Positions 7,685-55,297 of a DNA stretch of 64,000 nucleotides are shown piece after piece. The notes beneath the pieces are model-generated. The model ran no database searches. It was not told where the DNA came from and saw only the letters and a list, made by a program, of their open reading frames with translations. The stretch's first letter is position 1, and the number at the start of each line of letters is the position of its first letter. Both the position numbers and the translations under genes were made by a program. This stretch comes from Acidobacteriota bacterium (lineage in GTDB: Bacteria > Acidobacteriota > Thermoanaerobaculia > UBA5066), in the NCBI GenBank assembly GCA_029781975.1, contig JAKOVQ010000010.1, forward strand, positions 234,375 through 298,374. Reading direction: 5' to 3'.

Positions 7685-7995
7685 AATCTCACTCCTGTCG
7701 TGAACCTCGGCCTCTTCTTCATGGCCGCACCGGCGGCGCGTAGTCACGATTGGGGCGCGAGCCGAGGTCGAATCCGCTTCCTCAACCTATAAGTGGCCGG
7801 AAACCGCGAAAACTCAGACAGGCGATCGAGAGAATTCCGAAGAAAGTTGCCCGGCGGAAGGGCGACGCGGTCGCAACGTCCGGGCGAGGCCATTGGCCCG
7901 TGGGCACGCCCGGGCTCCGACGGGGGCCGGAGCGGGCAGGAATACGGCGAGCCTTCTCGCCGTTACGGAACGGGTTAGCCTTGCGCGAGGAGTCG

Positions 7996-19896: not shown

Positions 19897-21234
19897 TCAG
19901 CTCCCGCCCCGCCACCGCTTGAACCGGTCGAGGACGCCCGGAGGCTTCACCCGCCCGGCAGCGTCCCGCTCGTAGTCGACGATGCCGCGGAGGACCTCCT
20001 CCTCCGGCCAGAAGCCGAAGCGGTAGGTCCAGCGATCGTCCGGGGACGACGGCGGCAGGGAGTCGTACAGGCGGTAGTGCTGCCCGGAGAAGAGGAGCGC
20101 CATCCCGGGCTGCCACTCGGGCCTCTCCTCGGCCACCTCCAGGACGAGCGCCCATTCGGTCTCCTCGGCGTCGTCCTCCACCGCCACGTCGCCCGTCGGG
20201 AGGCGCCGGCGGCGGAGGTGCCCCGCGGCGCGCGGCCGCCGGAGCGCCCCGGCCAGCTCGGCCGCGCTGCCGAAGCGGCGGGACCGGTCCTTCTCGAGGC
20301 AGGTCTGGACGATCCGGTCGAGCCAGGCCGGGACCTCGCCGCGCAGCGAGCGGACGAGCGGCGGCGGCTCGTTCCGGTGCTTCATCGCCACCGCCATCGG
20401 CGTGTCGCCGCCGAACGGGGGCGAGCCGGTCAGGAGCTCGAAGAGGACGACGCCGAGCGAGTAGACGTCGCTCCTCGCGTCGACGCGCGCGCTCTCGAAT
20501 TGCTCGGGAGACATGTACTCGGGCGTCCCCAGCGTCACGCCGGTGGCCGTGATGGTGCCGCCGCCGACCCCGACCCGCCGGGCGATGCCGAAGTCGACGA
20601 GCTTCACCGAGCCGTCCCGCGCGAGCATCACGTTCTGGGGCTTCACGTCTCGGTGGACGATGCCGGCGGCGTGCGCCGCGCCGAGCGCGTCGGCAACCGT
20701 CGCCACGAGGGCCGCCGCCTCCGCGGGGGGCCACGGCCCGCGGCGCCGGATCTCCTCCTTGAGGTCGGTGCCGTCGACCAGGTCCGAGACGTAGTAGGCC
20801 TCCCCGTCCGAGGTCCCGAAGTCGTGGATGGACGGGATCCCGCCGTGGCGGATCCGGGCGAGGAGGCCCGCCTCGCGCTGGAACCTCTCGAGCCCCCCGG
20901 GCTCGTCGCGGATCGCCGCGTGGAGGACCTTCAGCGCCTTCGGCCGGCGGTCGTCCCCCTCGTCGCTCACGCGGTAGACCGTCCCCATCCCGCCGCGCCC
21001 CAGGAACGCCTCGACTCGGTAGCGCCCGGCAAAGAGCTCGCCCGCCGCCTTCCGGTCCCCGCCTGGTCGAGGAGGAGGCGGAGAGGCGGCATGACCCTCG
21101 CCGTAGGGAAGCGTCGGCGCCTCCTCGGTCGAGGCCGAGGAGATCCCGGCGGGGAGGCCGGGCCCTTCCCCGCAGAGGGGGCAGGCCCCCTCCCCCGGAT
21201 AACCCTCGAAGCCGCACGACGGGCAGGCGCTCAT
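19897..21234 (-). CDS. Hanks-type Ser/Thr protein kinase with an N-terminal Cys4 zinc ribbon
   Basis: CPSCG…CPLCG at the N-terminus. Kinase motifs GRGGMGTVY, ALKVL, HRDVKPQNVML, DFGIA, GTPEYMSPE. Confidence 0.85.
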   Translation of the reverse strand: MSACPSCGFEGYPGEGACPLCGEGPGLPAGISSASTEEAPTLPYGEGHAASPPPPRPGGDRKAAGELFAGRYRVEAFLGRGGMGTVYRVSDEGDDRRPKALKVLHAAIRDEPGGLERFQREAGLLARIRHGGIPSIHDFGTSDGEAYYVSDLVDGTDLKEEIRRRGPWPPAEAAALVATVADALGAAHAAGIVHRDVKPQNVMLARDGSVKLVDFGIARRVGVGGGTITATGVTLGTPEYMSPEQFESARVDARSDVYSLGVVLFELLTGSPPFGGDTPMAVAMKHRNEPPPLVRSLRGEVPAWLDRIVQTCLEKDRSRRFGSAAELAGALRRPRAAGHLRRRRLPTGDVAVEDDAEETEWALVLEVAEERPEWQPGMALLFSGQHYRLYDSLPPSSPDDRWTYRFGFWPEEEVLRGIVDYERDAAGRVKPPGVLDRFKRWRGGS

Positions 21235-33540: not shown

Positions 33541-34920
33541 CTAGGCCCCGGCGCCCCCCTTGGGGAACGTCGCGACGGCGCGCGTCGGCTGGCCGTCGCC
33601 GGAGAGGAGCGCCAGCGTCCCGCCGTGCCCCTTCACGATCCGGTCGGCGATCGGGAGGCCCAGGCCGGTCCCGGCGTCCTTCGTGGAGACGAAGAGGCGG
33701 AAGACGTCCGCGGCCTTCGTCGGCGGGACGCCGGGCCCCTTGTCCTCCACCGTCAGCTTCCAGCACCGGCCGCCGTCCTCCACGGCCACGGAGACCTCAC
33801 GGGCGGTCGCCCCCTCGCTCTCGACGGCGTCGAGCGCGTTGACGACGAGGTTGAGGACGACCTGCTTGACCCGGGCCACGTCGAGCCGTGCCGGCGCGCC
33901 GCCGGGGTGGGGCCGGTAGGCGAGCTGGATGTTCCGCTTGGCCGCTTCGGGGAGCAGGAACGCGACCGCCTCCCCCGCCGGCTCGTTCAGGTCGGCCGGA
34001 ACGGGCGAGAGGGGCGACGGGCGGGCGTACGAGAGGAAGTCGGTCAGGAGGCGGGCCAGGCGCCCGGTCTCCTGCCGCGCCGCCTGCGTCAGGTCGGCGG
34101 CGGCAGCGATCGTCGCGGGACCCGCGGTGGCCTGCTGGAGCTGCTCCTCGAGGAGCTCGAGGTTGAGGCTCATGGCGTTCAGCGGGTTGCGGATCTCGTG
34201 GGCCAGGCCGGTCGCCACCTCGCCCAGCTCCGCGCGCCGCTCGGCCTCGACGCGCGCCTCCTCGACGGCGCGCGTCCGCCGGACGAGGAGCATGACGGCC
34301 GTCGACGCGGCCGCGATGCCGAGGAGCGAGGCGAGGGCGGCGGCGAACGTCCGGACGTAGAGCTTCTTCCGGAGGACCTCCACCCGCCCCTCGAGCTCCT
34401 TCTGCGAGAGCCCCACCTTCAGGACGCCGAAGTCGGCGATCGGGACCTCGACGGCGTAGGGGTCCGAGATCTTCGAGGTCGACTCCCAGCTGCTCTCCGG
34501 GGGCTGGAGCGGGCTGGTGTCGAGCTCGGGCCCGCGCCGTCCCTCCGGGGCCACGCCTCCCTCCGGCTGGGGCTTCTGCAGGACGCCCGTGTAGGCGTAG
34601 ACGAGCTTCCCCTTGCTGTCGTAGACGCGGACCTCCGAGAGGACCTGCCGCTCCTTCAGCGTGGAGCCGACGAAGAGGTCGGTCTCCTTCTGCCTCCGCT
34701 TCAGGGTGTAGAGGTCCCCCCCGGCCCGCTCGACCAGGCCCTTGGCGATCCGCTCGGCGTCCCACCTCGAGTAGAGGAGCGCCTCGTCGACCACGTCCTT
34801 CGAGAGCGCCTTGAAGAGGAGGTGCCCGAAGAGGAAGACCGACCCGGCCGTCAGGAGGCCGAGGAGCGAGAGCGTGATCGTGAGGTTCCGGCGAAAGCGC
34901 CGGGTTTCGGGGTCCGACAC
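33541..34920 (-). CDS. Sensor histidine kinase (2 TM segments, a periplasmic loop, HisKA and HATPase_c domains)
   Basis: H-box LAHEIRNPLNAM; N-box VVLNLVVNALDA; G-boxes DKGPGV and GTGLGLPIA. TM segments at the N-terminus and near aa 190. Confidence 0.85.
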   Translation of the reverse strand: MSDPETRRFRRNLTITLSLLGLLTAGSVFLFGHLLFKALSKDVVDEALLYSRWDAERIAKGLVERAGGDLYTLKRRQKETDLFVGSTLKERQVLSEVRVYDSKGKLVYAYTGVLQKPQPEGGVAPEGRRGPELDTSPLQPPESSWESTSKISDPYAVEVPIADFGVLKVGLSQKELEGRVEVLRKKLYVRTFAAALASLLGIAAASTAVMLLVRRTRAVEEARVEAERRAELGEVATGLAHEIRNPLNAMSLNLELLEEQLQQATAGPATIAAAADLTQAARQETGRLARLLTDFLSYARPSPLSPVPADLNEPAGEAVAFLLPEAAKRNIQLAYRPHPGGAPARLDVARVKQVVLNLVVNALDAVESEGATAREVSVAVEDGGRCWKLTVEDKGPGVPPTKAADVFRLFVSTKDAGTGLGLPIADRIVKGHGGTLALLSGDGQPTRAVATFPKGGAGA

Positions 34921-34967
34921 CGACGGGAGTGTAAGGCGGCGGGCAATCGGGCTATCCTCCGCCGCCG

Positions 34968-35522
34968 ATGCCCGCGACTCCCGGCCCCGCCCCCTCCGCG
35001 CGAAAAGGCCTCCGGCCCGAGAGCGCCTTCCTCCTGAAGTTCCTCGGCCTGATGGCCCTCTTCTTCCTCGCCGTCGCCCCGAAGCCGATGAACGACGCGC
35101 TCGTCGAGCCGTTCACGTCCCTCGTCGCCCGGGCGGGCGGGACGGCCTGCCGGCTCTTCGGCGAGCCGACGGAGATGCGCGGCACCGCGATCGTCTCTCC
35201 CCGCTTCTCGGTCAACATCCGGAACGGCTGCAACGGCCTCGAGACGATGTTCATCTTCGGCGCGGCGGTCCTCGCCTTCCCGGCCCCGTGGAAGGTGCGG
35301 CTCCTCGGCCTCCTGGGCGGCTTCGCCGGGATCCAGCTGATCAACCTCGTGAGGATCGTGTCGCTCTTCTACATCGGGATCCACTTCCCGAAGCTCTTCG
35401 AGGAATCCCACATCGTCGTCTGGCAGGTGATCGTCGTCCTCGGCGGGGTGGCGCTCTTCCTGCTCTGGGCGGGGCGCTTTGCTCTCCCGGCTCGATCCAA
35501 GAATCCGGTCGCTGCTCCTTAG
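34968..35522 (+). CDS. Small polytopic membrane protein with exosortase/archaeosortase-like catalytic motifs (Cys, Arg, His)
   Basis: FSVNIRNGCNGLETMFIF gives Cys in a C-x-G context; IQLINLVRIVSLF gives the N..R(I/V) motif; ESHIVVWQVIVVLGGVALF gives H…G…F. The order and spacing resemble the exosortase catalytic core. The family assignment is tentative. Confidence 0.4.
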   Translation: MPATPGPAPSARKGLRPESAFLLKFLGLMALFFLAVAPKPMNDALVEPFTSLVARAGGTACRLFGEPTEMRGTAIVSPRFSVNIRNGCNGLETMFIFGAAVLAFPAPWKVRLLGLLGGFAGIQLINLVRIVSLFYIGIHFPKLFEESHIVVWQVIVVLGGVALFLLWAGRFALPARSKNPVAAP

Positions 35523-36072
35523 GCTCCCGCTGGCCGCGGCCGCCGCGCTCCTGGCGTGGTACGCGGCCCTGGAGGGGGCCTGGGGCACGCTGGTGGCAGG
35601 GGTGACGGAGCCCCTCGTCCGGCTCTTCGAGCGGACGCCCGTCACCCGGCTGACCCTCGAGGGGACGCTCCTCGTCGTCTCGCGGAGCGACCTCTCGAGC
35701 GACTCGGCCCTCCCGTCGTTCGCCCTCGCGCCGATCACGGTGAACCTGGTCCTCCTCCTGGCGCTCCTCTGGGCGACGCCACGGACGCTCCGGGCCGAGG
35801 GGCTCTGGAGGATCGCGGCGGCGCTCGGGGCGCTTCTGGCGAGCCACGTCCTCCACCTCATCCTGACGGTGGAGACGCTCTACGCGACGAGCCTCGGGCC
35901 CTGGAGCGTCGCCGCCTACCCGAGGTGGCAGCGCGAGGTCCTGGCGACGGGACGCTACTTCTTCGACATCGCGCTGAAGTACGCGCTCCCGTTCGTCCTC
36001 TGGGCCCTCACGCTGGACCTCGCGCCCTTCGAGGAGCGAACGGCGAGGGCGCCGAGGCGCCGGAAGCGCTGA
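35479..36072 (+). CDS. Hypothetical polytopic membrane protein. The ORF overlaps the previous gene by 44 nt, so the start is uncertain or there is a frameshift.
   Basis: 4-5 hydrophobic segments (LLRLPLAAAAALLAWYAAL…, ITVNLVLLLALLWA…, LGALLASHVLHLIL…, ALKYALPFVLWALTL). No motif recognised. Confidence 0.4.
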   Translation: MLSRLDPRIRSLLLRLPLAAAAALLAWYAALEGAWGTLVAGVTEPLVRLFERTPVTRLTLEGTLLVVSRSDLSSDSALPSFALAPITVNLVLLLALLWATPRTLRAEGLWRIAAALGALLASHVLHLILTVETLYATSLGPWSVAAYPRWQREVLATGRYFFDIALKYALPFVLWALTLDLAPFEERTARAPRRRKR

Positions 36073-36124
36073 CCTTCCGCCCGCTCTCGCGCCCCCTCTC
36101 GCGCCGGCCGGGACCTCCCCGGGC

Positions 36125-38053
36125 TCAGTCGTCGTGCTTCTTGAGGTAGCGGTAGTCCTTGATGTCGTACTCCTTCATCTTCGCGATCAGGCTGCCGCGC
36201 GAGATGTTCAGGAGCCGTGCGCCGAGGGACTGGTTCCCGCGGACCTTGCGCATGACGCGCTCGATGACCTGGCGCTCGACCTTCTCGACGATCTCCTTGA
36301 GGTCGTCGCTCTCGGCCAGCGCCACCTCGAGCCGCTCCTCCCCGAACTTCGGGTCGAGGTCCTTGAGCTTCACGGGGCCCGCGCCGAGGGTCGCGGCGAG
36401 GCGGCGGCACTCGTTCTCCAGCTCCCTCACGTTCCCGGGGTAGCTCGCCGCGAGGAGGGCGTTCATCGCCTCGACGTCGAAGGCCGACGCGGGGGGGCCG
36501 CCGTGGCGGACGGCGAAGGCGTCGAGGAGGGCCGGGAGGTCCTCCTTCCGGTCGCGCAGGGGGGGGAGGCGGACGGTGAGAGTCGCCAGCTCGTAGTAGA
36601 GGTCCTCGCGGAAGGTCCCCTCCTCCATCGCCCGCGTCAGCGGCCGGGAGGTCGTCCCGATGACCCGGACGTCGACCGACGCCGACCGCCCGCCGGGTCC
36701 CACCACCTCGCGCGTCTTCAGGAGGCGGTAGAGGAGCGCCTGCGTGGGGGCGGGGAGGTCGCCCACCTCCTCGATGAGGAGCGTCCCGCCGTCCGCCTCG
36801 AAGAGGCGGCCCGTCCGCCTCCGCCGGTCGGCGGGGCCCGGGCTCCCGAGGAGGTCGTCCTCGAGCGCCGCGGCGGTGGAGGCGGTGGCGGCGATCCTCA
36901 CGAGCGGCCGGGGCCTCCTCGGGGAGAGGGCGTGGAGGGTCTCGGCCGCCAGCGTCTTCCCCGTCCCGACGTCGCCGATCACGAGGACCGAGGCGCGCGT
37001 GGCGGCGATCCGCTGCAGGGACGCCCGGAGGTTCTCCATCGGGAGCGAGTTCCCGACGACCGCCGAGAGCGGCTCCTCGAGGACGACGCTCTGCGGCAGG
37101 GGCTGCGGCGCCACGCCCCGCTCGCCGAACGGGGCCTCGGCCCGCTCGGCGTGGACGAGCCCGGCGGCGGAGGCGAGGCCGAGCGCGAAGTCGTTCATCC
37201 CCGCGTCGGCGGCGAGCTCGTTCGGGAGGACGAGGAGGCCGACCACCTCGGCCAGCGGCCGTGTGACCGGGTAGACGCGGATCCGCGTCCCCGCCTCGAA
37301 CGCGTCGACGGGCGCGCCCGACTCCATCACCTCGTCCACCGTCTTGCGCGACAGCTTCGGGAGGGTCCCCTTCCAGATGGCCGCCACCGCCTCGCCGGCG
37401 CTGGCCTCGGCGATCGAGAGGAACGCCACGCTGTGGACGGGCGTCGAGGAGGAGAGGTAGGAGGCCACGTCCTGGAGGCGCTCCTCGAGCGCGGACCCGC
37501 CCCGGAGCCTCGCGAAGACCTCCGGCCAGACCTCGCCGGGCCGGAACGCCGGGCCGGCCGCCGGACGCGGGTACGAAGGGGGCGCCTCGTACCGCGGCGC
37601 GGGGCGGGCCGGCGGCTGGGCCGGAGGCTCCGGAGCGCGCGGCGCGGCCGGCGCGGGGGCGGCCGGTGCCTGGGGGCTCGGCGCGAGGGCCGCGGCGGCC
37701 ATCGAGAAGGCGTCCCGTCCCCGGGCCGGAGGGGCGGAGATCCTGTTCGGGTTCGGAGCAGGGCCGTTCAGGAGAGTGATCGTCGCCTCGCCAATCGAGA
37801 TCCGGTCCCCCGCCGACAGCGAAGCGGACTTGACGATCGACCCGTTCAGCAGCACGTCGGAGCCGGGAGCCGAACCGAGTACGTCCAGCCGAAGCTCGTC
37901 TCCGGTCACCGAGATCCGTGCGTGCCGTCCCAGGACACCGCGCGCCCTCACGACCAGGTCGTTACCCGACGAGGCGCCGATGTGGATGACGTCCCGGTGG
38001 ACCTTTCGGACCTCCGACTCGCCGCCGGGCTTGCGGACCTCGAAGCTCAACAT
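36125..38053 (-). CDS. Sigma-54-type AAA+ transcriptional activator with an N-terminal FHA domain and a C-terminal Fis-type HTH. The GAFTGA loop is degenerate.
   Basis: FHA domain: IHIGASSGNDLVV…GRHARI…NGS. Walker A in VLVIGDVGTGKT; Walker B LLIEEVGDL; arginine finger region GNVREL. The C-terminal HTH reads RGNQSLGARLLNISRGSLIAKMKEY. Where GAFTGA should be, the protein reads GSPGPADRRRRTG. GGAGG lies 8 nt upstream of the ATG at 38053. Confidence 0.75.
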   Translation of the reverse strand: MLSFEVRKPGGESEVRKVHRDVIHIGASSGNDLVVRARGVLGRHARISVTGDELRLDVLGSAPGSDVLLNGSIVKSASLSAGDRISIGEATITLLNGPAPNPNRISAPPARGRDAFSMAAAALAPSPQAPAAPAPAAPRAPEPPAQPPARPAPRYEAPPSYPRPAAGPAFRPGEVWPEVFARLRGGSALEERLQDVASYLSSSTPVHSVAFLSIAEASAGEAVAAIWKGTLPKLSRKTVDEVMESGAPVDAFEAGTRIRVYPVTRPLAEVVGLLVLPNELAADAGMNDFALGLASAAGLVHAERAEAPFGERGVAPQPLPQSVVLEEPLSAVVGNSLPMENLRASLQRIAATRASVLVIGDVGTGKTLAAETLHALSPRRPRPLVRIAATASTAAALEDDLLGSPGPADRRRRTGRLFEADGGTLLIEEVGDLPAPTQALLYRLLKTREVVGPGGRSASVDVRVIGTTSRPLTRAMEEGTFREDLYYELATLTVRLPPLRDRKEDLPALLDAFAVRHGGPPASAFDVEAMNALLAASYPGNVRELENECRRLAATLGAGPVKLKDLDPKFGEERLEVALAESDDLKEIVEKVERQVIERVMRKVRGNQSLGARLLNISRGSLIAKMKEYDIKDYRYLKKHDD

Positions 38054-38181
38054 GTCTCTGGCCTCCGTTTCCCGTGAGGGAACACCTACGGACGCACAGA
38101 CAGTACCACGTCCGGACGACGCTGTACTCGCCGAGGCGACAGGATCTGAACGCCGGCCTAAGATACCTTCGAGGGCATCTG

Positions 38182-39147
38182 GTGCCGGGATTCCTGATCG
38201 AGGCCGTCCCCTTCTCCGCGACGAGCGACCAGGACCTGGCCGCCCTCCTGGGGACCCTCCGGGCCGCGCTCGACCCCGACGCGTTCGAGATGTCCTTCTT
38301 CTTTCCGCCGACCGGCCGCTGGTACCGGCGCCGCGTGGTGGGCCTCCGGGACTCGGGCCTGAGGCCCCTTCCCCTCTCGGGGCCGTCGCCCCCCCCGGAC
38401 GACGGCTCGGCGCTCGTGGTCCCGTTCGGCGGGCCCGGGGACACGGAAGGGACGCTCCAGCTGATCCGGCGCCGCCCGCGGCCCTGGACCGGCGCGGAGC
38501 GGACGCGGTTCGAGCTGATCCGGCCGCTCGTGGAGCAGCTCGTCGGGACGATCGCCCGCCGCCAGGCCGATCGCTGCGCCCGCCGCCGGCTCTTCGCCGC
38601 CGCGGAGGAGACCGACGCCCCCGTCCTCGCCTTCGACGCGACAGGGACGATCCTCTACGCGAACGGCGCGGCCGACGACCTCATCTCCCTGCAGACCGAG
38701 CAGGGGCTGGCGGTCCTCTCGGGCGGCCGCCGGCAGGCCCCCCTCCTCTCGCACCTCATCCAGCTGGCGCGGACCGACCCGGCGCCGCGACGCGAGCGCC
38801 TGGCCCTCTCGAACGGCCGCTCGCTCGAGGCGCGGGTCGTCGAGGTCCCGCCGGAGGGGCCCGAGCCCTCCTGCCGGCTCGTCGTCCTGCAGGAGCGCGC
38901 GGCCCTCACGATCGACGACGTCCGCCCCCAGCTCCTCGCGCGCGGCGTGTCGGGGCGCGAGGCCGACGTCGTCGCCGGGGTCCTCAAGGGGCTCCGGAAC
39001 GCCGAGATCGCGACCGAGCTCTTCATCAGCGAGTACACCGTGAAGGACCACCTCAAGCACGTCTTCGCCAAGCTCGGCGTCGCCTCGCGCGGGGCCCTCC
39101 TTCGGGAGCTCTACGCCGCCCCCGCCGAGGAGCCGGCGCCCGGCTGA
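38182..39147 (+). CDS. LuxR-family transcriptional regulator with a PAS-like sensor region
   Basis: The C-terminal HTH is the LuxR signature: SGREADVVAGVLKGLRNAEIATELFISEYTVKDHLKHVFAKLG. Upstream, FDATGTILYANGAADDLISL is PAS-like. The start is uncertain. The track ORF begins at 38074, only 20 nt from the divergent gene. I chose the GTG at 38182, which has GAGGG upstream. Confidence 0.55.
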   Translation: MPGFLIEAVPFSATSDQDLAALLGTLRAALDPDAFEMSFFFPPTGRWYRRRVVGLRDSGLRPLPLSGPSPPPDDGSALVVPFGGPGDTEGTLQLIRRRPRPWTGAERTRFELIRPLVEQLVGTIARRQADRCARRRLFAAAEETDAPVLAFDATGTILYANGAADDLISLQTEQGLAVLSGGRRQAPLLSHLIQLARTDPAPRRERLALSNGRSLEARVVEVPPEGPEPSCRLVVLQERAALTIDDVRPQLLARGVSGREADVVAGVLKGLRNAEIATELFISEYTVKDHLKHVFAKLGVASRGALLRELYAAPAEEPAPG

Positions 39148-39235: not shown

Positions 39236-42200
39236 ATGTTTCGACTCAAGAAGCTCGAGATCCACGGTTTCAAGTCCTTCGTCGACCGCACCTCCCTGAC
39301 CCTTCCGTCCCGCATCACGGCCATCGTCGGCCCGAACGGCTCCGGCAAGTCGAACATCTGCGACGCCGTCATGTGGGTGCTGGGCGAGCAGTCGGCCCGC
39401 GTCCTTCGCGGGACGACGATGGAGGACGTCATCTTCAACGGCTCCGCCCGGCGAAAGCCCCTCGGCCTCGCCGAGGTCTCCCTGACGCTCGAGGCGCGCG
39501 GGGACGGCCAGTGGGCCGACACGGGGGGCGAGGTCGTCATCACGCGGCGCGTGACCCGCGACGGCGAGGGCGAGTACCTCCTGAACGGCCGCCGCTCCCG
39601 CCTGAAGGACGTCCAGGACCTCCTCCTCGGGACCGGCCTCGGCGTCCGCGCCTACGCGATCATCGAGCAGCAGAAGATCGAGCTGATCCTCTCGAGCAAG
39701 CCGCAGGACCGGCGGCGGCTCGTCGAGGAGGCGGCCGGGATCTCGAAGTACAAGCTCAGGAAGCGGCAGGCCGAGGTGAAGCTCGAGGAGACCCGCGCCA
39801 ACCTCCTCCGCCTGACCGACATCGTCGCCGAGATCGAGAGGACCTGCACCTCCCTCAAGCGGCAGGCCGGCCGCGCCGCCCGCTGGAGGGAGCAGGCCGA
39901 CGCGCTCGCGGCGCTGAAGAAGCGCCTCCTCCGGCTGAAGGGGGAGCGGCTCGCGGAGGCCGTGGCCGCCGCGGAGGCGGCGCTCGCGACGGCGACCGAC
40001 GCCGAGGGACGCGCCCTGGCCGAGGCCGGCCGGCTCGACGCCGCCTTCGAGGAGGCGCGCCACCGCTCGGACGTCGACGAGCGCGCGCGTCGCGAGCGCG
40101 TCGACGCCTTCGCCGCCGCGCGCGAGGCGCTCCTCTCCGCGGAGGCGGAGGCCGCCGCCGCCGCGCGCGAGGCCGAGGAGAGCGACGCCCGCCGAGAGCT
40201 CCTCGAGGCCCAGCGCCGCGAGGCGGAGGCCGACCACCTGCGCGAGGTGGAGGAGGCGACCCGCGGGGAGGAGGCCCTTCAGGAGGCCGTCGCGGCCCTC
40301 GAGGAGGCCGAGGAGCGCGCCCGCGGCACGGCCGAGGCGCTCGCCGCCGCGGCCCGCACCGAGCAGGAGCGGTCGCAGCGCCGCGAGGCGCAGCGGCGCG
40401 AGCTGCTGACGGCGGCCGCGCGCGCCACCGAGGCGACGAACCGCGAGCGCGAGGCCGCGCTCCTCGCCGACCGGCTCGGCTTCGCCCTCGCGAAGCTCGA
40501 GGAGCGGCGCGGCCGCGCCAGCGAGTCGCTCGAGGAGCGGCGTCGCGTGGAGGGCGAGGCCGCCGCCGCGGACGCGGCGACGTCCGAGGCGCTGGACGAG
40601 GCCCGCAGGCGCCTGGAGGAGGCCGGCACCGGCCGCCGCGACGCGCAGGAGCGGCTCGCCTCCCTGAACGGCGAGAAGGAGGCCGCCCAGAAGGCGTTCC
40701 ACGCCCTCGACCGGCGGATCGCGGCCCTCGAGACGCTCCTTGCGGCCCGCGAGTCGGGCGGGGAGGCCGCCCGGAAGGCCCTCGAGGCCGCCGGCGTCTC
40801 TCCCGCCGGCGTCCTCGCCGACTCCTTCGACGCCCGCGAGGGGTTCGAGAGCGCGCTCGACGCCGCCCTCGGCGGCGCCCTCGAGGCGCCCGTCGTCAGG
40901 GACCGGTCCGACCTCGACCGCGTCCTGGCGGCGGTCCGGACCGCTCACCTCGGGACGGCTCGCTTCGTCCACCCGATCCCCGACACGCCGTTCCCCCTCC
41001 GCCCGAAGGACGACCGCGTCCTGGGCGTGGCCCGCGAGCTCCTCAGGCCCCGCCCGGGCGAGGAGGAGCTCGCCTCGGCGCTCCCCGACGCCGTCGTCGT
41101 CCGGACGGTGGACGAGGCGCTCGCCCTCGCCCCTCACCTCCCGGAGCGGACCATCGCCACCGTCGACGGCGTCGTCGTCCGCGGCTCCACGGTCGAGGCG
41201 TCGGGGACGGAGCTCCCGGGGGAGGGGCTCTTCACCGTCCGCCGCGACCTCAAGCAGCTGACGGCCGAGCGCGAGGGGCTCGTGGAGCGGCTCGCCGCGC
41301 TCGACGCCGGGATCGCCGACACCGGGACGGCCGCCGGGGAGCTGGCTGCCGCCGTGGAGCGCGAGGTCGCCGCGAGCCGGCGCGCCGAGCGCGCCCACTC
41401 CGAGGCGGAGGCGCGCCTCGCCTCCGCCCGGCAGGAGACGGCCCGGGCCGAGCGCGAGCTCTTCACGCTCGGCGAGGAGGAGACGGCCCTCCGCGCCGAC
41501 CTCGCGCGCGTAGGGCAGGAGCGGGCGGCCGCCCTCGAGACCGCGGCCCAGCGGACCGCCGAGATGGCGACCGTGGAGAAGGGGATCGCCGACCTCGAGG
41601 CCGAGGTGGAGGCGGCCCGGGCCGCCCGCCTCGCGGCCGCCGAGGCGGACGCCGCCGCGCGCGGGACGCGGGACGTCCTGCGCGAGCGGAAGCGGTCGGC
41701 CGCGGGCGCCTTCGAATCCCATCGCGCCCGCGCCGACGCGGCGGCGCGGCGCCTCGCCGAGACGGCCGAGGCGATGAAGGGCCAGGACGGCCGCAAGGAA
41801 GCCGCCCTCGCCGCCGGGGAGGAGGCGCGCGCGCGGTGCGCGACCCTCGCCGCCGCGGTCGCCGGCGCGGAGGCCGCCCGCGACGCCGCCGCGCGGACCG
41901 CCGAGGAGGGTCGGGCTCTCCTCGAGACGCTCGACCGGCAGGCCCACGAGGCGCGCGAGGCGCTCGACGCGGCCCGGAGGGGGCGGTTCGAGGCCGAGCT
42001 GACGCTCGAGAAGCGGCGCGGCGACGCCGAGCACCTCTCCGAGAGCTGCCGCGCGGAGTTCGGCTGCCTCCCCGCCGACCTCCCCGAGGTGGCCCGGGAG
42101 GAGGGGGAGCCGGCGCCCGACGACGAGGCGCTCGCCGCCCTCTCCGAGGAGGTCGTCCAGAAGACCGTGGCGCTCGAGCGGCTCGGCCCGGTCAACCACG

Positions 42201-42775
42201 CCGCCCTGGAGGAGTTCGACGCCGAGAGCCAGCGCCTGCGGGAGATGTCGACGCAGAAGCTCGACCTCGAGAAGTCGCTCGACCAGATCCTCGAGACGAT
42301 CCGGACGATCAACGCCACGTCGTCCGAGCGGTTCCAGGAGGCGTTCGCCGCCATCAACGCCGGCTTCGACGTCGTCTTCCAGCGCCTCTTCCGCGGCGGG
42401 ACCGCGTCGATGCAGCTCCTCGACGAGAACGACCCGCTCGACTCGGGGATCGAGATCATGGCCCAGCCCCCCGGCAAGAGGAACCAGACGATCGCGCTCC
42501 TCTCCGGGGGCGAGAAGGCGCTGACCGCGGTGGCCCTCCTCGTCTCGATCTTCAAGTACAGGCCGTCGCCGTTCTGCATCCTCGACGAGGTCGACGCGCC
42601 GCTCGACGAGGCGAACATCGACCGCTTCACCGGCCTCCTCTCGGAGCTCTCCGAGGAGACGCAGTTCGTCCTCATCACCCACTCGAAGCGGACGATGGAG
42701 ACCGCCCAGGCCCTCTACGGAGTGACCCAGGAGGAGCCGGGCGTCTCCAAGATCGTCAGCGTCCGCTTCGACTGA
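39236..42775 (+). CDS. smc: Chromosome segregation protein SMC
   Basis: Walker A in MFRLKKLEIHGFKSF…IVGPNGSGKSNICDAV; long coiled-coil arms with Ala/Glu/Arg-rich heptads; signature motif LSGGEKALTAVALL; Walker B ILDEVDAPLDEAN. 1179 aa. Confidence 0.9.
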   Translation: MFRLKKLEIHGFKSFVDRTSLTLPSRITAIVGPNGSGKSNICDAVMWVLGEQSARVLRGTTMEDVIFNGSARRKPLGLAEVSLTLEARGDGQWADTGGEVVITRRVTRDGEGEYLLNGRRSRLKDVQDLLLGTGLGVRAYAIIEQQKIELILSSKPQDRRRLVEEAAGISKYKLRKRQAEVKLEETRANLLRLTDIVAEIERTCTSLKRQAGRAARWREQADALAALKKRLLRLKGERLAEAVAAAEAALATATDAEGRALAEAGRLDAAFEEARHRSDVDERARRERVDAFAAAREALLSAEAEAAAAAREAEESDARRELLEAQRREAEADHLREVEEATRGEEALQEAVAALEEAEERARGTAEALAAAARTEQERSQRREAQRRELLTAAARATEATNREREAALLADRLGFALAKLEERRGRASESLEERRRVEGEAAAADAATSEALDEARRRLEEAGTGRRDAQERLASLNGEKEAAQKAFHALDRRIAALETLLAARESGGEAARKALEAAGVSPAGVLADSFDAREGFESALDAALGGALEAPVVRDRSDLDRVLAAVRTAHLGTARFVHPIPDTPFPLRPKDDRVLGVARELLRPRPGEEELASALPDAVVVRTVDEALALAPHLPERTIATVDGVVVRGSTVEASGTELPGEGLFTVRRDLKQLTAEREGLVERLAALDAGIADTGTAAGELAAAVEREVAASRRAERAHSEAEARLASARQETARAERELFTLGEEETALRADLARVGQERAAALETAAQRTAEMATVEKGIADLEAEVEAARAARLAAAEADAAARGTRDVLRERKRSAAGAFESHRARADAAARRLAETAEAMKGQDGRKEAALAAGEEARARCATLAAAVAGAEAARDAAARTAEEGRALLETLDRQAHEAREALDAARRGRFEAELTLEKRRGDAEHLSESCRAEFGCLPADLPEVAREEGEPAPDDEALAALSEEVVQKTVALERLGPVNHAALEEFDAESQRLREMSTQKLDLEKSLDQILETIRTINATSSERFQEAFAAINAGFDVVFQRLFRGGTASMQLLDENDPLDSGIEIMAQPPGKRNQTIALLSGGEKALTAVALLVSIFKYRPSPFCILDEVDAPLDEANIDRFTGLLSELSEETQFVLITHSKRTMETAQALYGVTQEEPGVSKIVSVRFD

Positions 42776-48096: not shown

Positions 48097-51000
48097 ATGA
48101 AGATGCGTCTCCCGTCGCTCCGCCCCCGCCTCGCCGCCTCGTTCGCGCTTGCGTCCCTGCTCGCCGCCGGCGCCTCGCGGGCCGCGACGGTCACCTGGAC
48201 CGGCGGCGCGTCCGGGGCGTGGGAGACCCCGGGGAGCTGGAGCGCGGGCCGCGTGCCGGGCGCTGGCGACGACGTGGTCATCGACGGCGCGGTGACCGTC
48301 GTGACCCAGGAGGCGGCCACGGCCGGGACCCTGACGATCGGACACCAGGGGGGGGCCGCGAGGCCGTCGCTCGTCGTGGCGTCCACCCTCGACGTCGGAG
48401 CGGCGACCCTCTGGAGCGGGAGCCTGATCGTCGCCGCCGGGCCGGTCCGCGCGACGGCGGGCGTCTTCGTCCGCGGAGGGATCTACTCCAGCGCGGGACC
48501 CCTCGTCGGGAACCTCGACAACGACGGCGGCTGGGTCAACCCGAACGGCCTCTCGGTCTTCACCGTCTCCGGGAGCTACCGCCAGAGCGCCCGGTCGGGG
48601 CTGGTCGTCCTGGCGAACGGGACGGTCCCGGGCGTCTCCCTGGGACAGCTGGCGGTCTCCGGGTCCGCGATCCTCGACGGCTTCGTCCTCGTGGGACCGT
48701 ACGACACGTACCAGCCGGCCGCCGGCGACTCGTTCCGCGTCCTGGCCTACGGGGCGCGGAGCGGGCGATTCTCGTACGTCCAGGTCGGGGCGTTCGCCTC
48801 GGCCGTCTGCTTCCGGCAGAGCTACGGCTCCGGCGCGCTGACGCTGACCTCGACGACGGCGTCGCTTCCGGCGCCGGTCCTCACCTCGTTCCCGACCGCC
48901 CCCGTCACCGCGGGGAGCCGCTTCACCCTGGCCTGGAGCCCGGTCTTCGGCACGGCACGCGAGGGACGCTACGAAGTCCTCGCCTCGGCGAAGGCCGACT
49001 GCAGCGCGCCCCGCACGTTCACCACGACCGACCCCTCCCTCACGGTCCCGACCGAGGCCGGACAGGACGCCTCCTATTGCATCGCCGTCCGCGCGGTCTC
49101 GAGCGACGGTTGCGCGAGCGACGCCTCCCCGCCCGTCGTCGTCCAGGTGAAGGCGGCGCTCCCCTCCTTCGAGGTCGTGAAGCCCCAGCGCCCGCTCGCC
49201 GTGGCGAACCAGGGCCAGCCAGCGACGGCGACGTCGAGCGTCGCCTTCCGTAACGTCGGCGCGAGCCCCGGCTCCCTCCAGCTGGCGGCGCAGGGCGGCT
49301 TCTTCTCCGTGGCCCCGGCGGAATTCCCGGACGTCGCGCCAGGCCAGACCGTCGTCGCGACGCTCTCCTTCTCGGGGGCGTCGACCGTCCAGCCCGGCAT
49401 CCGGCTCGGGAGGCTCGTCGGCGCCTGGCAGGTCCAGGGCCAGCCGAGGGGGACGGCCACCCCGGTCCTCCTGGCGGTCCTTCCGGGGACGCCGCTCGCC
49501 AGCTCCGGATCGCGCCCCGAGCCGGTCGGCACGAACGAGATCCACTTCCGCACCTACGGCCCCGGATCCCCGACCCCGCGGCAGGCCACCATCCGGAACA
49601 CCGGGAGCAAGGCCTTGCGGCTGACGCCGGCGATCGGCCCGGGTGGAGCATGGCTCTCCGTGAGCGGCGACTTCACGACCCCTCTCGCGCCGGGCGAGGA
49701 GCGGGCCTTCACCCTCTCCGTCGACCGGACCCTGCGCTCCTCGGCGGACGGCCCCCCGCCGCTCGTCACCCTCCTCCGCTTCCAGAACGCGGACGGCACC
49801 GCGGACGACACGACCGACTTCCAGGTCTTCGACGAGGAGCTCCCGACCCCGGCGTCGGGGAGCGGCCGCCCCGCGCTCGCTCCCGGCGAGACCTCGCTCG
49901 TCTTCGGCTCCTCGGTGAGCGCCCAGGGAGCCGGGGCGACCTTCGTCTCCGACGGCTGGATCCGCAACGGCGGCTCCGACCCCGCCCCCCTCACCGTCTA
50001 CTACAGCCCCGACGGCGCCGCCGACGCCGACTCGCTGAAGAGCTCGTTCCTACTCCCGGCCTACACGACCGTCCGCCTCTCCGACTTCGTCCAGGGGCTC
50101 TTCGAGCGGAGCGGCAGCGGCCACGTGGAGGTCCGCTCGCCGGCGCTCGCCTCGCTCTCGGTGCGGACCACCGTCGACTCGCTCGTCACGAAGGGGGGGA
50201 TCGCCGTCCGCTACGGCGCCGAGATCCCGGTCGTGACAGCCGGCCAGGGGGTGGGATCGGACGAGGCGCCCGGCGCGTCGCTCTTCGTCACCGGGATCCG
50301 CGGCGGAGCGGGAGCGCCCTTCCGGACGAACGTGATCCTCGCCGAGACGTCGGGACGGGGCGCGACGGTCCTCCTCCGGCTCCGGGACGCGGCGGGGAGC
50401 GTCGTCTCCGAGGTCCAGAAGAGCGTCGCCGCCCACTCCAAGCTCCAGGTCAACGCGACCGACACGACCCTCTTCCCGTCCGCGGCCGCCTACGACCACG
50501 GTAGCCTCGAGGTCGTCCGCGTCGCCGGGACGGGGACCGTGGCCGCCTTCGCCACCGTGATCGACAACGCCTCCCAGGCGTACACGACGCGCCTCGGCCG
50601 CTTCCTCCCGTCGGCGACCGCGCCGAGCTCGGTGGCGATCGCCGCGCCCGGCCTCCGCGCGGGGACCCCGGCAGACGCGCCGCTCCTCGCCGCCTCGGCC
50701 ACCACGCTTCGCGCCGTCCTCCCCGCGGCCGCGCGCACCGAGGGGGTCAACGACTCCTTCTTCACCACCTCGGTCAGCCTGACGAACGGCTCCGCGGAGG
50801 CCGCCAGCGTCCAGCTGACCTACCGCCCAGACGTCGGAGACCCGGTCGGCCCGCTCCCGCTCACCGTCGCCGCGCGTGCGACCGTGACGCTCGACGACGT
50901 CGTGGGGACCTTCTTCCACCTCGCGACCGACACTGCCGGCACCGTCCTCTTCGAGGGGGACGACCTCGCGCGCCTCACCGTCGCCTCCGACACCTCGACG

Positions 51001-51480
51001 CCGATCGACCGGAGCCACCCGGAGAAGGGCGTCTCCCTCTCCACCCTCGCCTGGTACTCCGACTCCTCCCCCGAGGTCTTCGGCGCGCCCGAGTCGGGCG
51101 CCTCCGCGAACGTCGTCTCCCACCCCGGCCTCGAGGAGAGCGCGCAGTTCCGGACCAACCTCGTCCTCGCCGAGGTGACGGGCCAGCCCGCGACGGTTCG
51201 CGTCCGGATTACCGCCAAGGGCTCCGGCGGCGCCCCGCTCGCCGACCGCGAGGTCTCTCTCCCGCCGTTCGGCCGGGTCCAGATCAACCGCTTCCTCCGC
51301 GACCTGACCGGCCAGCCCGACGCCGAGCTCGTCGACGTCGAGACCTCGGTCGAGGCCGAGTCCGGCACGGGGCGCGTCGTCGTCCTCGCGACGAAGATCG
51401 CGAACGATCCCTCCTCCAAGCGCTCCGACATCTACGTCTTCCGCCCGACGGGGGAGGCCCAGGGGGCGATCGGGTTCTGA
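48097..51480 (+). CDS. Large secreted hypothetical protein (1127 aa, beta-rich, possible adhesin or surface protein)
   Basis: Signal peptide MKMRLPSLRPRLAASFALASLLAAGASRA. It is Gly/Ser/Thr/Val-rich with repeated beta-strand-like segments. No catalytic motif recognised. Confidence 0.55.
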   Translation: MKMRLPSLRPRLAASFALASLLAAGASRAATVTWTGGASGAWETPGSWSAGRVPGAGDDVVIDGAVTVVTQEAATAGTLTIGHQGGAARPSLVVASTLDVGAATLWSGSLIVAAGPVRATAGVFVRGGIYSSAGPLVGNLDNDGGWVNPNGLSVFTVSGSYRQSARSGLVVLANGTVPGVSLGQLAVSGSAILDGFVLVGPYDTYQPAAGDSFRVLAYGARSGRFSYVQVGAFASAVCFRQSYGSGALTLTSTTASLPAPVLTSFPTAPVTAGSRFTLAWSPVFGTAREGRYEVLASAKADCSAPRTFTTTDPSLTVPTEAGQDASYCIAVRAVSSDGCASDASPPVVVQVKAALPSFEVVKPQRPLAVANQGQPATATSSVAFRNVGASPGSLQLAAQGGFFSVAPAEFPDVAPGQTVVATLSFSGASTVQPGIRLGRLVGAWQVQGQPRGTATPVLLAVLPGTPLASSGSRPEPVGTNEIHFRTYGPGSPTPRQATIRNTGSKALRLTPAIGPGGAWLSVSGDFTTPLAPGEERAFTLSVDRTLRSSADGPPPLVTLLRFQNADGTADDTTDFQVFDEELPTPASGSGRPALAPGETSLVFGSSVSAQGAGATFVSDGWIRNGGSDPAPLTVYYSPDGAADADSLKSSFLLPAYTTVRLSDFVQGLFERSGSGHVEVRSPALASLSVRTTVDSLVTKGGIAVRYGAEIPVVTAGQGVGSDEAPGASLFVTGIRGGAGAPFRTNVILAETSGRGATVLLRLRDAAGSVVSEVQKSVAAHSKLQVNATDTTLFPSAAAYDHGSLEVVRVAGTGTVAAFATVIDNASQAYTTRLGRFLPSATAPSSVAIAAPGLRAGTPADAPLLAASATTLRAVLPAAARTEGVNDSFFTTSVSLTNGSAEAASVQLTYRPDVGDPVGPLPLTVAARATVTLDDVVGTFFHLATDTAGTVLFEGDDLARLTVASDTSTPIDRSHPEKGVSLSTLAWYSDSSPEVFGAPESGASANVVSHPGLEESAQFRTNLVLAEVTGQPATVRVRITAKGSGGAPLADREVSLPPFGRVQINRFLRDLTGQPDAELVDVETSVEAESGTGRVVVLATKIANDPSSKRSDIYVFRPTGEAQGAIGF

Positions 51481-53893: not shown

Positions 53894-54484
53894 ATGAGGG
53901 ACCCCGAGGCGCCTGAATCACTGGCCGGCCTGGCGGAGCGGATCCGCCGTGGTGAGGGTGCGGCCGACGAGGAGCTCTTTCGCCGGTTCCACGAGAAGGT
54001 CTTCGTCATGGCGCTGGTCCGCACGCGAGACCGCGAGGCGGCACGCGACGTCGCGCAGGAGACGATGCTCGCCGTTCTCACGGGGGTCCGACAGGGTCGG
54101 CTTCTCGAGCCCGAAAAGCTCGCCGGGTACGTCTGCGGCACCGCCCGTAACCTCGTCCACGAGCACCTTCGGGCCAACCGGCCCCGCCCGGGTCTCACCG
54201 GAGCGGACCCGCCCGTGGTCCGCGGCGCCGACGAAGAGCTGGAGGAGGCCGAGCGGAGCTTCCTCGTCCACCGGGTCCTCCGGAGCCTCACCTCCCCGGA
54301 CCGAGCCGTCCTCGTCCTTACGCTCGTCGACGGGCTCGCCCCCGCCGAGATCGCCGGGCGCCTCGGCCTGCAGCCCGAGGCCGTCCGCCAACGGAAGTCG
54401 CGCGCGCTCCGGCGCGCGCGCGCCCTCCTCGAGCAGCTGTCACGTCCGACGCGCGAACGCCACCTTGCTGTGAGGGGAACGTGA
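53894..54484 (+). CDS. ECF-subfamily RNA polymerase sigma-70 factor
   Basis: Region 2: FHEKVFVMALVRTRDREAARDVAQETMLAV. Region 4 HTH: LTSPDRAVLVLTLVDGLAPAEIAGRLGLQPEAVRQRKSRAL. Confidence 0.85.
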   Translation: MRDPEAPESLAGLAERIRRGEGAADEELFRRFHEKVFVMALVRTRDREAARDVAQETMLAVLTGVRQGRLLEPEKLAGYVCGTARNLVHEHLRANRPRPGLTGADPPVVRGADEELEEAERSFLVHRVLRSLTSPDRAVLVLTLVDGLAPAEIAGRLGLQPEAVRQRKSRALRRARALLEQLSRPTRERHLAVRGT

Positions 54485-55275: not shown

Positions 55276-55297
55276 GCCCCGCGGGGAGGAGTCCGCC

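Follow-up and report, generated by a model that had tools for sequence, protein, structure and literature searches.

An exosortase H gene and its associated membrane-protein gene beside an atypical enhancer-binding-protein-like regulator in an acidobacterial genome

The region 34968-36072 of the window (the whole 64,000-nucleotide stretch of DNA analysed) is very likely a two-gene operon for exosortase H (XrtH) and the membrane protein that usually accompanies it. The host is an acidobacterial MAG of Thermoanaerobaculia/Holophagales type, and the locus represents an already known system in a new lineage (Acidobacteriota). A neighbouring regulator, very probably sigma-54-incompetent, is the sole mildly unusual feature of the locus. 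The ORFs, the Cys/Arg/His motifs of the smaller membrane protein, the 44-nt overlap of the two membrane-protein ORFs, the histidine kinase and the FHA-type activator devoid of GAFTGA were all found where the preliminary description had placed them. All four ORFs show the GC3-rich codon signature expected of genuine genes at the 72% GC of this window, and for the 184-aa protein, the 197-aa protein and the kinase our gene calls coincide exactly with the public ones.

Exosortase H and its partner membrane protein

HMM searches with the 184-aa product of xrtH (34968..35522, plus strand) gave matches above the cutoffs to TIGR04177 (105.2 bits, cutoff 86, E 3e-30; residues 21-168 against profile positions 3-152 of 158), TIGR04178 (55.6 bits, cutoff 23, E 5e-15) and PF09721 (43.8 bits, cutoff 25.7). 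The protein, short and built of five helices, is integral to the membrane (AF2 model pLDDT 86.7) and carries the exosortase constellation of Cys88 in GCNG (nt 35229-35231), Arg129 in NLVR (nt 35352-35354) and His148 in SH (nt 35409-35411). These three residues, and likewise Asn126, are invariant in an alignment of 36 XrtH sequences at 49-76% identity, and the invariance of the triad at such distances is far beyond chance. Many of the 1804 homologues bear the name 'exosortase H (IPTLxxWG-CTERM-specific)'. Judged from its sequence, the protein belongs to the catalogued exosortase H family as an unremarkable member, and the earlier proposal of an exosortase-family protein with an intact catalytic constellation is borne out both by the profile matches and by the conservation of Cys, Arg and His in the homologues. 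Its length, described earlier as far shorter than canonical XrtA, is no anomaly since the XrtH family is short by definition (a 158-position profile), as are XrtF, XrtM, XrtX, XrtY, ArtB and ArtE. To our knowledge, the XrtH family has no experimentally characterised member.

The 197-aa polytopic membrane protein encoded by the next ORF (35479..36072, plus strand, TTG start) matches NF041730 collinearly, residues 10-177 against profile positions 2-179 of 184, with E 5e-5 and 23.1 bits, which is below the cutoff of 35. The same profile is matched by 18 of 21 partner orthologues (best E 6e-9), and PF28117 (XrtH_assoc) is flagged on the orthologue in locus L001. Such matches identify the ORF as a divergent member of the curated "XrtH-associated membrane protein" family (NF041730/PF28117), which comprises 319 representative clusters; the AF2 model of the window protein has a pLDDT of 89.2.

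The exosortase H/IPTL-CTERM system, represented by the models TIGR04177 (XrtH), TIGR04174 (IPTL-CTERM), NF041730 and NF033207 (midcut-by-XrtH), is resembled in the short (~160-190 aa) exosortase with a Cys/Arg/His triad and a score above the family cutoff, and in the partner gene immediately 3' of xrtH. The present locus differs in its host lineage (Acidobacteriota; Thermoanaerobaculia/Holophagales MAGs), in the divergence of the partner (23 bits against the cutoff of 35) and in that no substrates were found locally, the only nearby candidate signal being IPTAGGPG rather than IPTLxxWG.

Two overlapping genes and the two-piece enzyme

Of 83 sequences compared (80 Acidobacteriota genome loci and three lookup loci, the window counted), 81 have the partner gene immediately 3' of xrtH; the other two have too little downstream DNA or no detectable partner match. 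The end of xrtH and the start of the partner overlap by 44 nt in frame +1 (35479..35522, plus strand), and 16 sequences, one of them the window, have exactly this overlap; the homologous start codon is ATG in most of these and TTG in the window, L004, L005 and L043. Six loci have a 32-nt overlap, and in distant clades the genes are separated by 0-57 nt or overlap by 1-29 nt. Thus, xrtH and the partner are two real overlapping genes and not a broken one. The idea, raised in the preliminary description, of a single gene split by a frameshift or an assembly indel within 35479-35522 could draw on the overlap of ORFs in different frames and on the rare TTG that opens the second, but it is excluded for practical purposes by the separateness of the genes in nearly all loci, the recurrence of the overlap (in 15 other loci, nearly all of them separate MAG assemblies and mostly with ATG) and the clade-dependent spacing. 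In addition, each ORF matches a full-length family profile of its own, the profile of XrtH runs out where the xrtH reading frame stops, the public gene calls agree with two products, and full-length fused homologues are absent from the 319 partner-family clusters.

A genuine two-piece enzyme, in which the partner would supply the TM helices missing in comparison with the 8-TM XrtA or would be a degenerate exosortase paralogue in a pseudo-symmetric heterodimer, appears unlikely. This reading is favoured by the strict gene adjacency with presumably coupled translation and by the fact that XrtH aligns to no more of the EpsH profile (254 positions) than positions 104-251. The AF2 models of the two proteins also run through the same succession of elements at closely matching residue numbers: a TM helix and a further helix, then three short strands, then three long helices. 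The only local hhalign match of the two proteins, LAFPAPWK.RL against LAVP..PWRRRL, falls at topologically equivalent positions. However, the hhalign probability lies at 0.08-0.17, and the score, 15.3, is indistinguishable from the average over 30 column-shuffled controls (15.8, sd 2.5). Neither PF09721 nor any other exosortase model hits the partner at E<=1, its family has no conserved Cys, the near-invariant His of its 'TD.HF' motif is lost in the window clade, and no related fold was found in the PDB. XrtA itself is an 8-TM enzyme of ~260-500 aa, and the window XrtH scores 16.5 bits against the XrtA cutoff of 208.

Proposed sorting activity and candidate substrates

By analogy with archaeosortase A and XrtA, XrtH would recognise Sec-exported proteins ending in a tripartite signal (an IPTLxxWG-type motif, one TM helix and a basic cluster), cleave them at the sorting motif and probably transfer the mature protein to an envelope acceptor. 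Coupling of signal removal with lipid attachment is experimentally supported for archaeosortase A/PGF-CTERM of Haloferax volcanii (summarised in bioRxiv 10.1101/2023.06.07.544157). XrtH has the same catalytic constellation, whereas archaeosortase A is archaeal, is longer and uses another signal motif, and the window XrtH reaches just 21 bits with the ArtA model (cutoff 75).

Because the partner start codon sits 44 nt inside the end of xrtH, synthesis of the two proteins may be coupled and roughly equimolar. The partner could be an obligate subunit or helper of XrtH, as suggested by the XrtF-associated protein: in Flavobacterium johnsoniae, deletion of xrtF or of the associated gene leads to the same defects in biofilm formation and surface colonisation (PMC10936215). 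XrtF and the exosortase F system-associated protein (Fjoh_1448/1449; PMC10936215) likewise pair a mini-exosortase with a dedicated small membrane protein, but belong to a different exosortase subfamily (48 bits for the window XrtH against the XrtF cutoff of 90) and an unrelated partner family.

The earlier remark that the window holds no PEP-CTERM substrate was upheld and extended, neither PEP-CTERM nor IPTL-like tails being found in any of its frames. Of 80 genome loci, 79 likewise showed no substrate up to 10 kb away from xrtH, and the substrates of XrtH are probably encoded elsewhere in the genome. The remaining locus, L020, belongs to a related genome and encodes, at a distance of 6 kb from xrtH, an IPTL-like candidate whose tail consists of ...PIPTAGGPG, a TM segment and RRSI. 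This tail (L020/P0393) itself scores below TIGR04174; canonical IPTL-CTERM tails occur at the equivalent position in homologues of the protein, four of which pass TIGR04174. Together these tails suggest that this clade has a type of substrate for XrtH.

Flanking regulators and the control of xrtH

The 642-aa FHA/AAA+/HTH regulator (36125..38053, minus strand; PF00158, PF25601, PF02954, PF00498, PF16697) comprises an FHA-like domain (aa 13-94, nt 37772-38017) followed by a Pro/Ala linker, a middle region labelled GAF-like by inspection only and lacking Pfam coverage (aa 165-325), an AAA+ domain (aa 333-574, nt 36332-37057) and a Fis-type HTH (aa 589-629, nt 36167-36289). In place of GAFTGA its L1 loop reads GSPGPADRRRRTG (nt 36809-36847); aligned to ZraR, it reads LLG---SPGPADRRRRTG opposite LFGHEKGAFTGADKRREG, which leaves the loop that contacts sigma-54 three residues short. 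The Walker A motif reads GDVGTGKT and the Walker B motif LLIEEV (EE). The short loop and the EE Walker B are conserved in 17 orthologues, at whose putative arginine-finger position the window protein has a Glu, for which reason it may be less active than its relatives.

Since the GAFTGA loop is absent, the protein is best described, from these motifs, as an "atypical" enhancer-binding protein (EBP), very probably unable to work with sigma-54, and it most likely binds DNA through the Fis-type HTH and acts on sigma-70-type promoters. Independence from sigma-54, suggested earlier on account of the degenerate loop, gains from the lack of GAFTGA in all 17 orthologues and from sister clades in which the ATPase motifs or the entire AAA+ domain have been lost while the FHA-like and HTH parts are kept. 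A sigma-54-dependent activator with a non-canonical L1 loop would accord with the strong PF00158 match (117.6 bits), the intact Walker A and sensor II and the 80% conservation of the AAA+ domain within the clade. It is nevertheless highly improbable, given the conserved shortening of the loop, the EE Walker B, the decay in sister clades, the action of known GAFTGA-less EBPs through sigma-70, and a promoter search in which sigma-54-like sites were not in excess across the window and were absent upstream of xrtH.

Atypical EBPs working with sigma-70 are documented, and NtrX has a similar three-residue-shorter loop (PMC6158489; bioRxiv 10.1101/2023.06.06.543975). The regulator shares with the GAFTGA-less proteins compared (VpsR, TyrR, HupR, HsfA, PhhR, NtrX and the NtrC of Caulobacter and Rhodobacter) an EBP-type AAA+ domain, a deleted or altered sigma-54 contact loop and a non-consensus Walker B. 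It differs from them in having an FHA-like domain without pThr contacts and a GAF-like region instead of receiver or ACT/PAS inputs, and in the stepwise loss of the AAA+ module among its orthologues. An N-terminal FHA-like domain and no receiver are also features of the Myxococcus xanthus FHA-domain EBPs, NtrC-like activators in which, as Jelsbak and co-workers reportedly described in 2005, FHA replaces the receiver at the N-terminus; these are said to keep GAFTGA and canonical FHA residues and to be sigma-54 dependent, whereas the window regulator has neither.

The canonical pThr contacts Arg, Ser and Asn are missing from the FHA-like domain (GarA alignment), and the variant motif is kept in every orthologue. 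This weakens the earlier suggestion of phospho-threonine control, for which a Ser/Thr kinase ~15 kb away had been cited and was indeed located (19897-21234, minus strand). Some kinase link to the locus may remain, as a large Ser/Thr kinase lies directly upstream of xrtH, co-directionally, in three distant loci (L024, L040, L062).

The membrane sensor histidine kinase (459 aa, 33541-34920, minus strand; PF00512 and PF02518) has two TM segments, a periplasmic loop, HisKA and HATPase_c, and is NtrB/ZraS/AtoS-like, its best NCBIfam matches (AtoS, ZraS) being far below the cutoffs. No REC domain or cognate receiver was found in any window gene scanned. The combination of an exosortase locus, a histidine kinase and an AAA+ regulator of the NtrC family recalls XrtA/PEP-CTERM with PrsK/PrsR, and the top NCBIfam match of the regulator is TIGR02915 (PrsR; 201 against a cutoff of 502.6); PrsR, however, has a receiver domain, GAFTGA and sigma-54 dependence, while the window regulator has an FHA-like N-terminus and neither receiver nor GAFTGA. 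The 47-bp spacer between the kinase and xrtH (34921..34967), a divergent control region, contains the motifs GGAGT[TG]TA and GCTATCCTCC, conserved in 21 aligned close-clade sequences; these might be back-to-back -10 boxes, TAAACT for the kinase and TATCCT for xrtH, with leaderless mRNAs.

The regulator, together with the divergent kinase, may control the xrtH operon; this functional link is the weakest step of the proposal, synteny being its sole basis, and smc, surely unrelated in function, is equally syntenic with the locus. The flanking regulators are lineage-specific. That both are neighbours of xrtH by descent and do not control it is a serious possibility, which we rate a little short of even. 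The kinase is adjacent to xrtH only in one fairly shallow clade (~22 loci, XrtH identity 56-74%), and the regulator, convergent with the operon rather than upstream of it, is missing in roughly one half of those loci whose sequence extends far enough downstream, smc being conserved close by in many loci both with and without the regulator. Control of xrtH is favoured, in turn, by the occurrence of the FHA-like...HTH_8 regulator in the same slot in 37 sequences from three sub-lineages despite AAA+ divergence or loss, by the two types of kinase abutting xrtH (histidine, divergent, in the window clade; Ser/Thr, co-directional, in the three distant loci) and by the conserved spacer motifs. A LuxR-type regulator (GerE HTH, PF00196 51.4 bits; 38074..39147, plus strand), with a weak PAS-like region below threshold and no receiver domain, is also syntenic in the close clade, between the FHA-type regulator and smc.

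The exosortase H gene and its overlapping partner

The window has a GC content of about 72%, and ORF listing with a GC3 filter resolved the locus into a histidine kinase gene (33541-34920, minus strand), a 184-aa ORF referred to here as xrtH (34968-35522, plus strand), a 197-aa ORF referred to as the partner (35479-36072, plus strand), which has a TTG start and overlaps xrtH by 44 nt, a 642-aa regulator (36125-38053, minus strand), a LuxR-type gene (38074-39147, plus strand) and smc (39236-42775, plus strand). All the genes of the preliminary description were recovered exactly, the kinase, 184-aa and 197-aa ORFs being identical to the public gene calls, and the window gave no hit in Rfam or tRNA scans.

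On its sequence, the 184-aa protein is an ordinary member of the catalogued exosortase H family, with a catalogued partner. It scores 105.2 bits against TIGR04177 (curated cutoff 86), residues 21-168 covering positions 3-152 of the 158-position profile in a full-length match, and it also exceeds the cutoffs of the exosortase/archaeosortase signature TIGR04178 (55.6 bits, cutoff 23) and of Pfam PF09721 (43.8 bits, cutoff 25.7); its earlier designation as an exosortase was thus correct. The Cys, Arg and His residues on which that designation relied are C88 (in GCNG), R129 (in NLVR) and H148 (in SH), and all three, together with N126, are invariant in an alignment of 36 homologous sequences sharing 49-76% identity. 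A database search yielded 1804 XrtH homologues, many of them labelled 'exosortase H (IPTLxxWG-CTERM-specific)' and originating from Thermoanaerobaculia/Acidobacteriota MAGs. In the confident AF2 model of XrtH (pLDDT 86.7), two helices at the N-terminus are followed by three short strands and then by three long helices; nothing similar was found in the PDB, and a literature search found no paper on XrtH.

The canonical XrtA/EpsH proteins are 8-TM proteins of about 260 aa or more, a description to which XrtH does not conform. Assignments as canonical exosortase A (TIGR03109, 16.5 bits against 208) and as full-length EpsH (TIGR02602, 8TM_EpsH, 22.7 bits against 105.55, with only part of the profile matched) were rejected. 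Since the Pfam match is limited to profile positions 104-251 of 254, XrtH is the counterpart of the C-terminal, catalytic portion of the 8-TM domain found in classical EpsH/XrtA. The short length, previously taken as an anomaly, is the norm of the family, and several short families with profiles of 150-175 positions have been curated (XrtH, XrtX, XrtM, XrtF, XrtY, ArtB, ArtE and pacearchaeosortase).

The partner, encoded beside xrtH, is a polytopic protein of 197 aa (family expectation about 190 aa), whose AF2 model (pLDDT 89.2) is a bundle of helices into which three strands are inserted. Its match to NF041730, 'exosortase H-associated membrane protein', lies below the cutoff of 35 (23.1 bits, E 5e-5) and is collinear between residues 10-177 and profile positions 2-179 of 184; the same model is matched by 18 of the 21 partner orthologues, with a best E-value of 6e-9. 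Precomputed Pfam annotation assigns PF28117 XrtH_assoc to the orthologue at L001, one of the genome loci used for comparison (there with a '(weak)' flag), and to many database homologues. The partner family comprises 319 representative clusters, nearly all of about 190-220 aa and unannotated. A few of its members (database proteins P0373 and P0390) are fused to C-terminal TPR repeats of about 200 aa resembling PrsT/PilW/Tgl-type TPR proteins.

The overlap of the two ORFs had raised the possibility of a split or frameshifted gene. The comparison set consisted of 84 sequences (80 genome loci with XrtH relatives, all from Acidobacteriota, three lookup loci and the window), in 83 of which the spacing could be scored. 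The partner lies immediately 3' of xrtH in 81 of the 83, the two exceptions having too little downstream DNA or no detectable match. An identical 44-nt overlap is present in 16 sequences, the window counted, with the homologous start of the partner being ATG in most of them and TTG in the window and three others; six loci have a 32-nt overlap, and the more distant clades show a gap of 0-57 nt or an overlap of a few bases. This recurring pattern rules out both an indel introduced in assembly and a frameshift of recent origin, and the split-gene reading was rejected, overlapping ORFs being the family norm. Judged by this spacing comparison, xrtH and the partner are two genes, which are probably translationally coupled. 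Shortness and gene overlap are the normal state of exosortase H and are thus not to be flagged as pseudogenisation; the locus is useful as a negative result on such flags. The core finding otherwise changes little, since existing curated models annotate the pair and close homologues are already public as exosortase H.

The two-subunit reading and the sorting signals

A dedicated small membrane protein always accompanies the mini-exosortases (XrtH, XrtF), and this constant company points to an uncharacterised two-subunit sorting enzyme. The best functional precedent for the XrtH-partner pair is XrtF of Flavobacterium johnsoniae with its associated gene, where biofilm and surface colonisation are lost alike on deletion of xrtF or of the associated gene (PMC10936215). 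In the AF2 models, XrtH and the partner share the order of their secondary-structure elements, at nearly equal residue numbers. In a reading that we consider unlikely, the partner would be a structural paralogue of XrtH without catalytic activity, forming a heterodimeric sortase with it. A derivation of the partner as the missing N-terminal half or as a paralogue of an exosortase was rejected at the level of primary structure, the similarity being confined to the predicted order of secondary structure. Nothing at E<=1 was obtained with the partner against every Pfam and NCBIfam exosortase model, and hhalign comparison of XrtH and the partner gave P of 0.08 and 0.17 (55x36 and 178x162 alignments), with a score of 15.3 against a mean of 15.8 for 30 shuffled controls and with reversed or block-shuffled controls performing no worse.

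Two substrate families, IPTL-CTERM (TIGR04174) and midcut-by-XrtH, were considered for exosortase H. The reported absence of a PEP-CTERM substrate from the window holds, as regex and tail scans in six frames found no PEP-CTERM/IPTL-like signal, whether C-terminal or internal. In the 83 other loci scanned, a single candidate sorting signal was found within 10 kb of xrtH, at locus L020. Its bearer, from the same clade as the window, is a 469-aa secreted Big_1-domain protein whose gene lies 6 kb away from xrtH; the protein ends in PIPTAGGPG, a TM segment and RRSI. This tail does not pass TIGR04174 and gives a weak match to midcut-by-XrtH (E 0.005). At the corresponding position, homologues of the L020 protein from other lineages have sorting tails of other kinds, among them the canonical IPTL-CTERM (e.g. 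IPTLSQWG), and four of these homologues pass TIGR04174. These observations suggest, short of proof, that an IPTL-type signal is in use in the clade and that the substrates of the window genome are encoded elsewhere.

The Big_1-domain family (L020 2869-4431, minus strand; database homologues P0393-P0512) is widespread and secreted, and its C-terminal signal varies by lineage, being of the IPTL-CTERM, IPEFPT (resembling the archaeal PEF-CTERM), VPVSNWA or MYXO-CTERM type, or lacking. The small ORFs 3' of the partner at another locus, L003, carry no sorting signal. Within the window, the protein encoded at 51487-53787 (minus strand) was rejected as a sorted substrate as it is a polytopic membrane protein; it has 766 aa, no Pfam family and a terminal TM segment followed by RIRRR, an ending with a superficial likeness to a sorting tail that probably represents no more than the final membrane span. 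The window also encodes a giant protein (2-7747, minus strand; over 2580 aa), which, with about 12 CarboxypepD_reg repeats, DUF6531 and RHS repeats, has its C-terminus outside the window.

The FHA-like regulator and its AAA+ module

The regulator consists of an FHA-like domain, an AAA+ module (PF00158, 117.6 bits; lid PF25601, 51.5 bits) and a Fis-type HTH (PF02954, 41.9 bits). Its N-terminus matches PF00498 (FHA, 29.8 bits, cutoff 20.7) and YscD-type PF16697 (33.5 bits, cutoff 33.2), and a REC domain was not found, in agreement with the earlier view of an FHA domain in place of a receiver. The accompanying proposal of phospho-Thr control is weakened: the FHA fold match stands, and the alignment to GarA reveals that the canonical pThr-contacting Arg (GR), Ser (SxxH) and Asn (NG) are lacking (GRHPDSD, VSRRHA and SLNGT in GarA against GASSGND, VLGRHA and SAPGS in the regulator). 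The variant motif GASSGN[DE]..VRARGV.GRH is conserved in all the regulator orthologues.

Alignments to ZraR and FleQ place SPGPAD at the position of GAFTGA in an L1 loop that is three residues shorter (LLG---SPGPADRRRR). Walker B reads LLIEEV, with EE instead of the DE of the consensus hhhhDE, and is so kept in all orthologues, while Walker A and sensor II are intact. The same state of the L1 loop and Walker B is common to 17 regulator orthologues and is therefore stable and not the decay of one genome. The putative arginine finger is replaced by Glu in the window regulator only (FREDLYYEL, aa 481-489, nt 36587-36613, against FR.DLY[YF]RL in the 17 orthologues). The suggestion that the protein is sigma-54-independent is well supported at the sequence level by these motifs, namely the absent GAFTGA and the Walker B EE retained in the orthologues. 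Enhancer-binding proteins (EBPs) that lack GAFTGA and act at sigma-70 promoters form an established class of 'atypical EBPs', including VpsR, TyrR, HupR, HsfA, PhhR, NtrX and Caulobacter NtrC (PMC6158489; bioRxiv 10.1101/2023.06.06.543975). With an EBP-type AAA+ module, no GAFTGA and a non-consensus Walker B, the regulator resembles these proteins and fits this atypical class as a putative sigma-70-acting member, with a new combination of input domains. Sigma-54 promoter-like sites number 21 in the window against 23 expected, with none upstream of xrtH, and rpoN was not found among the window genes scanned. An assignment as PrsR (TIGR02915) was rejected, the score being 201.2 bits against 502.6, with the match restricted to the AAA+/HTH part (329-632) and no REC domain; more generally, the flanking regulators score far below the cutoffs for PrsK/PrsR and EpsA.

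In 37 sequences a regulator homologue fills the slot convergent with the partner gene. The full architecture is present in 19 sequences and the window. Four of the 37 (L024, L040, L062 and L072) have an AAA+ domain with a K-to-R change in Walker A, RD in Walker B and loss of the arginine fingers and sensor II, and in 13-14 of the 37 the FHA-like and HTH_8 parts are present with the AAA+ domain wholly absent. The AAA+ motor thus occurs in sister clades in three stages of decay, with motifs partly intact, ATPase-dead or deleted. This natural series, in which an EBP sheds its sigma-54 and ATPase functions and keeps its input and DNA-binding domains, could interest specialists; together with the unexplained obligatory partner of the mini-exosortases, it forms the main point of interest of the locus, which we rate as low to moderate. 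The intermediate form at L040 (11479-13287, minus strand) is ATPase-dead by motif: Walker A reads GRPGSGRM and Walker B LRDV, and the sensor II Arg is missing. The AAA+-less orthologues, of about 360-415 aa, comprise the FHA-like domain, a middle region and the Fis-type HTH in the same slot beside the partner gene (L031 11136-12224, minus strand; also L036, L039, L050, L056, L063, L064, L066, L070, L076, L081 and L083).

Kinases, spacer and conserved neighbourhood

The histidine kinase is ZraS/AtoS-like and adjoins xrtH in the close clade only. It has no cognate receiver nearby, and a scan of window genes detected none with a receiver domain. An unusual Ser/Thr kinase fills its slot in L024, L040 and L062. 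This is a membrane protein of about 850 aa encoded immediately 5' of xrtH in the same orientation (L040 7342-9897, plus strand; L024 about 7627-9981; L062 about 7666-9909), with N-terminal TM segments, a long repeat region and a C-terminal kinase domain.

The 47-bp spacer between the kinase gene and xrtH (34921-34967) contains two motifs conserved across 21 sequences (the window and spacers from L001-L022 and L043), GGAGT[TG]TA beside the kinase start and GCTATCCTCC located 9-20 nt before the xrtH start. A possible reading is that they are -10 elements placed back to back, TAAACT serving the minus strand and TATCCT the plus strand, with leaderless divergent mRNAs as the products.

It is conceivable, and in our estimation unlikely, that the XrtH/partner pair belongs to a lineage-specific signalling cassette controlling the sorting of surface proteins by XrtH, with the partner being a dead XrtH paralogue in a heterodimeric sortase. 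A former sigma-54 activator would then have been converted to a sigma-54-independent FHA-like/GAF-like/HTH regulator, and histidine and Ser/Thr kinases would have replaced one another as the adjacent sensor kinase. The smc gene is found no more than a few kb 3' of the xrtH pair in many loci, across all the sub-clades, and is as syntenic as the regulators. Descent therefore accounts for the conservation of the neighbourhood, so that synteny has limited value as functional evidence, and conserved gene order by itself is weak evidence for any control of xrtH by the regulators.

Elsewhere in the window, an ECF-type sigma factor gene precedes that of a 1165-aa TPR-CHAT (caspase-like) protein (53894-58795, plus strand), and near these genes are those of two large secreted proteins that match no family (48097-51480, plus strand; 60226-62877, minus strand).
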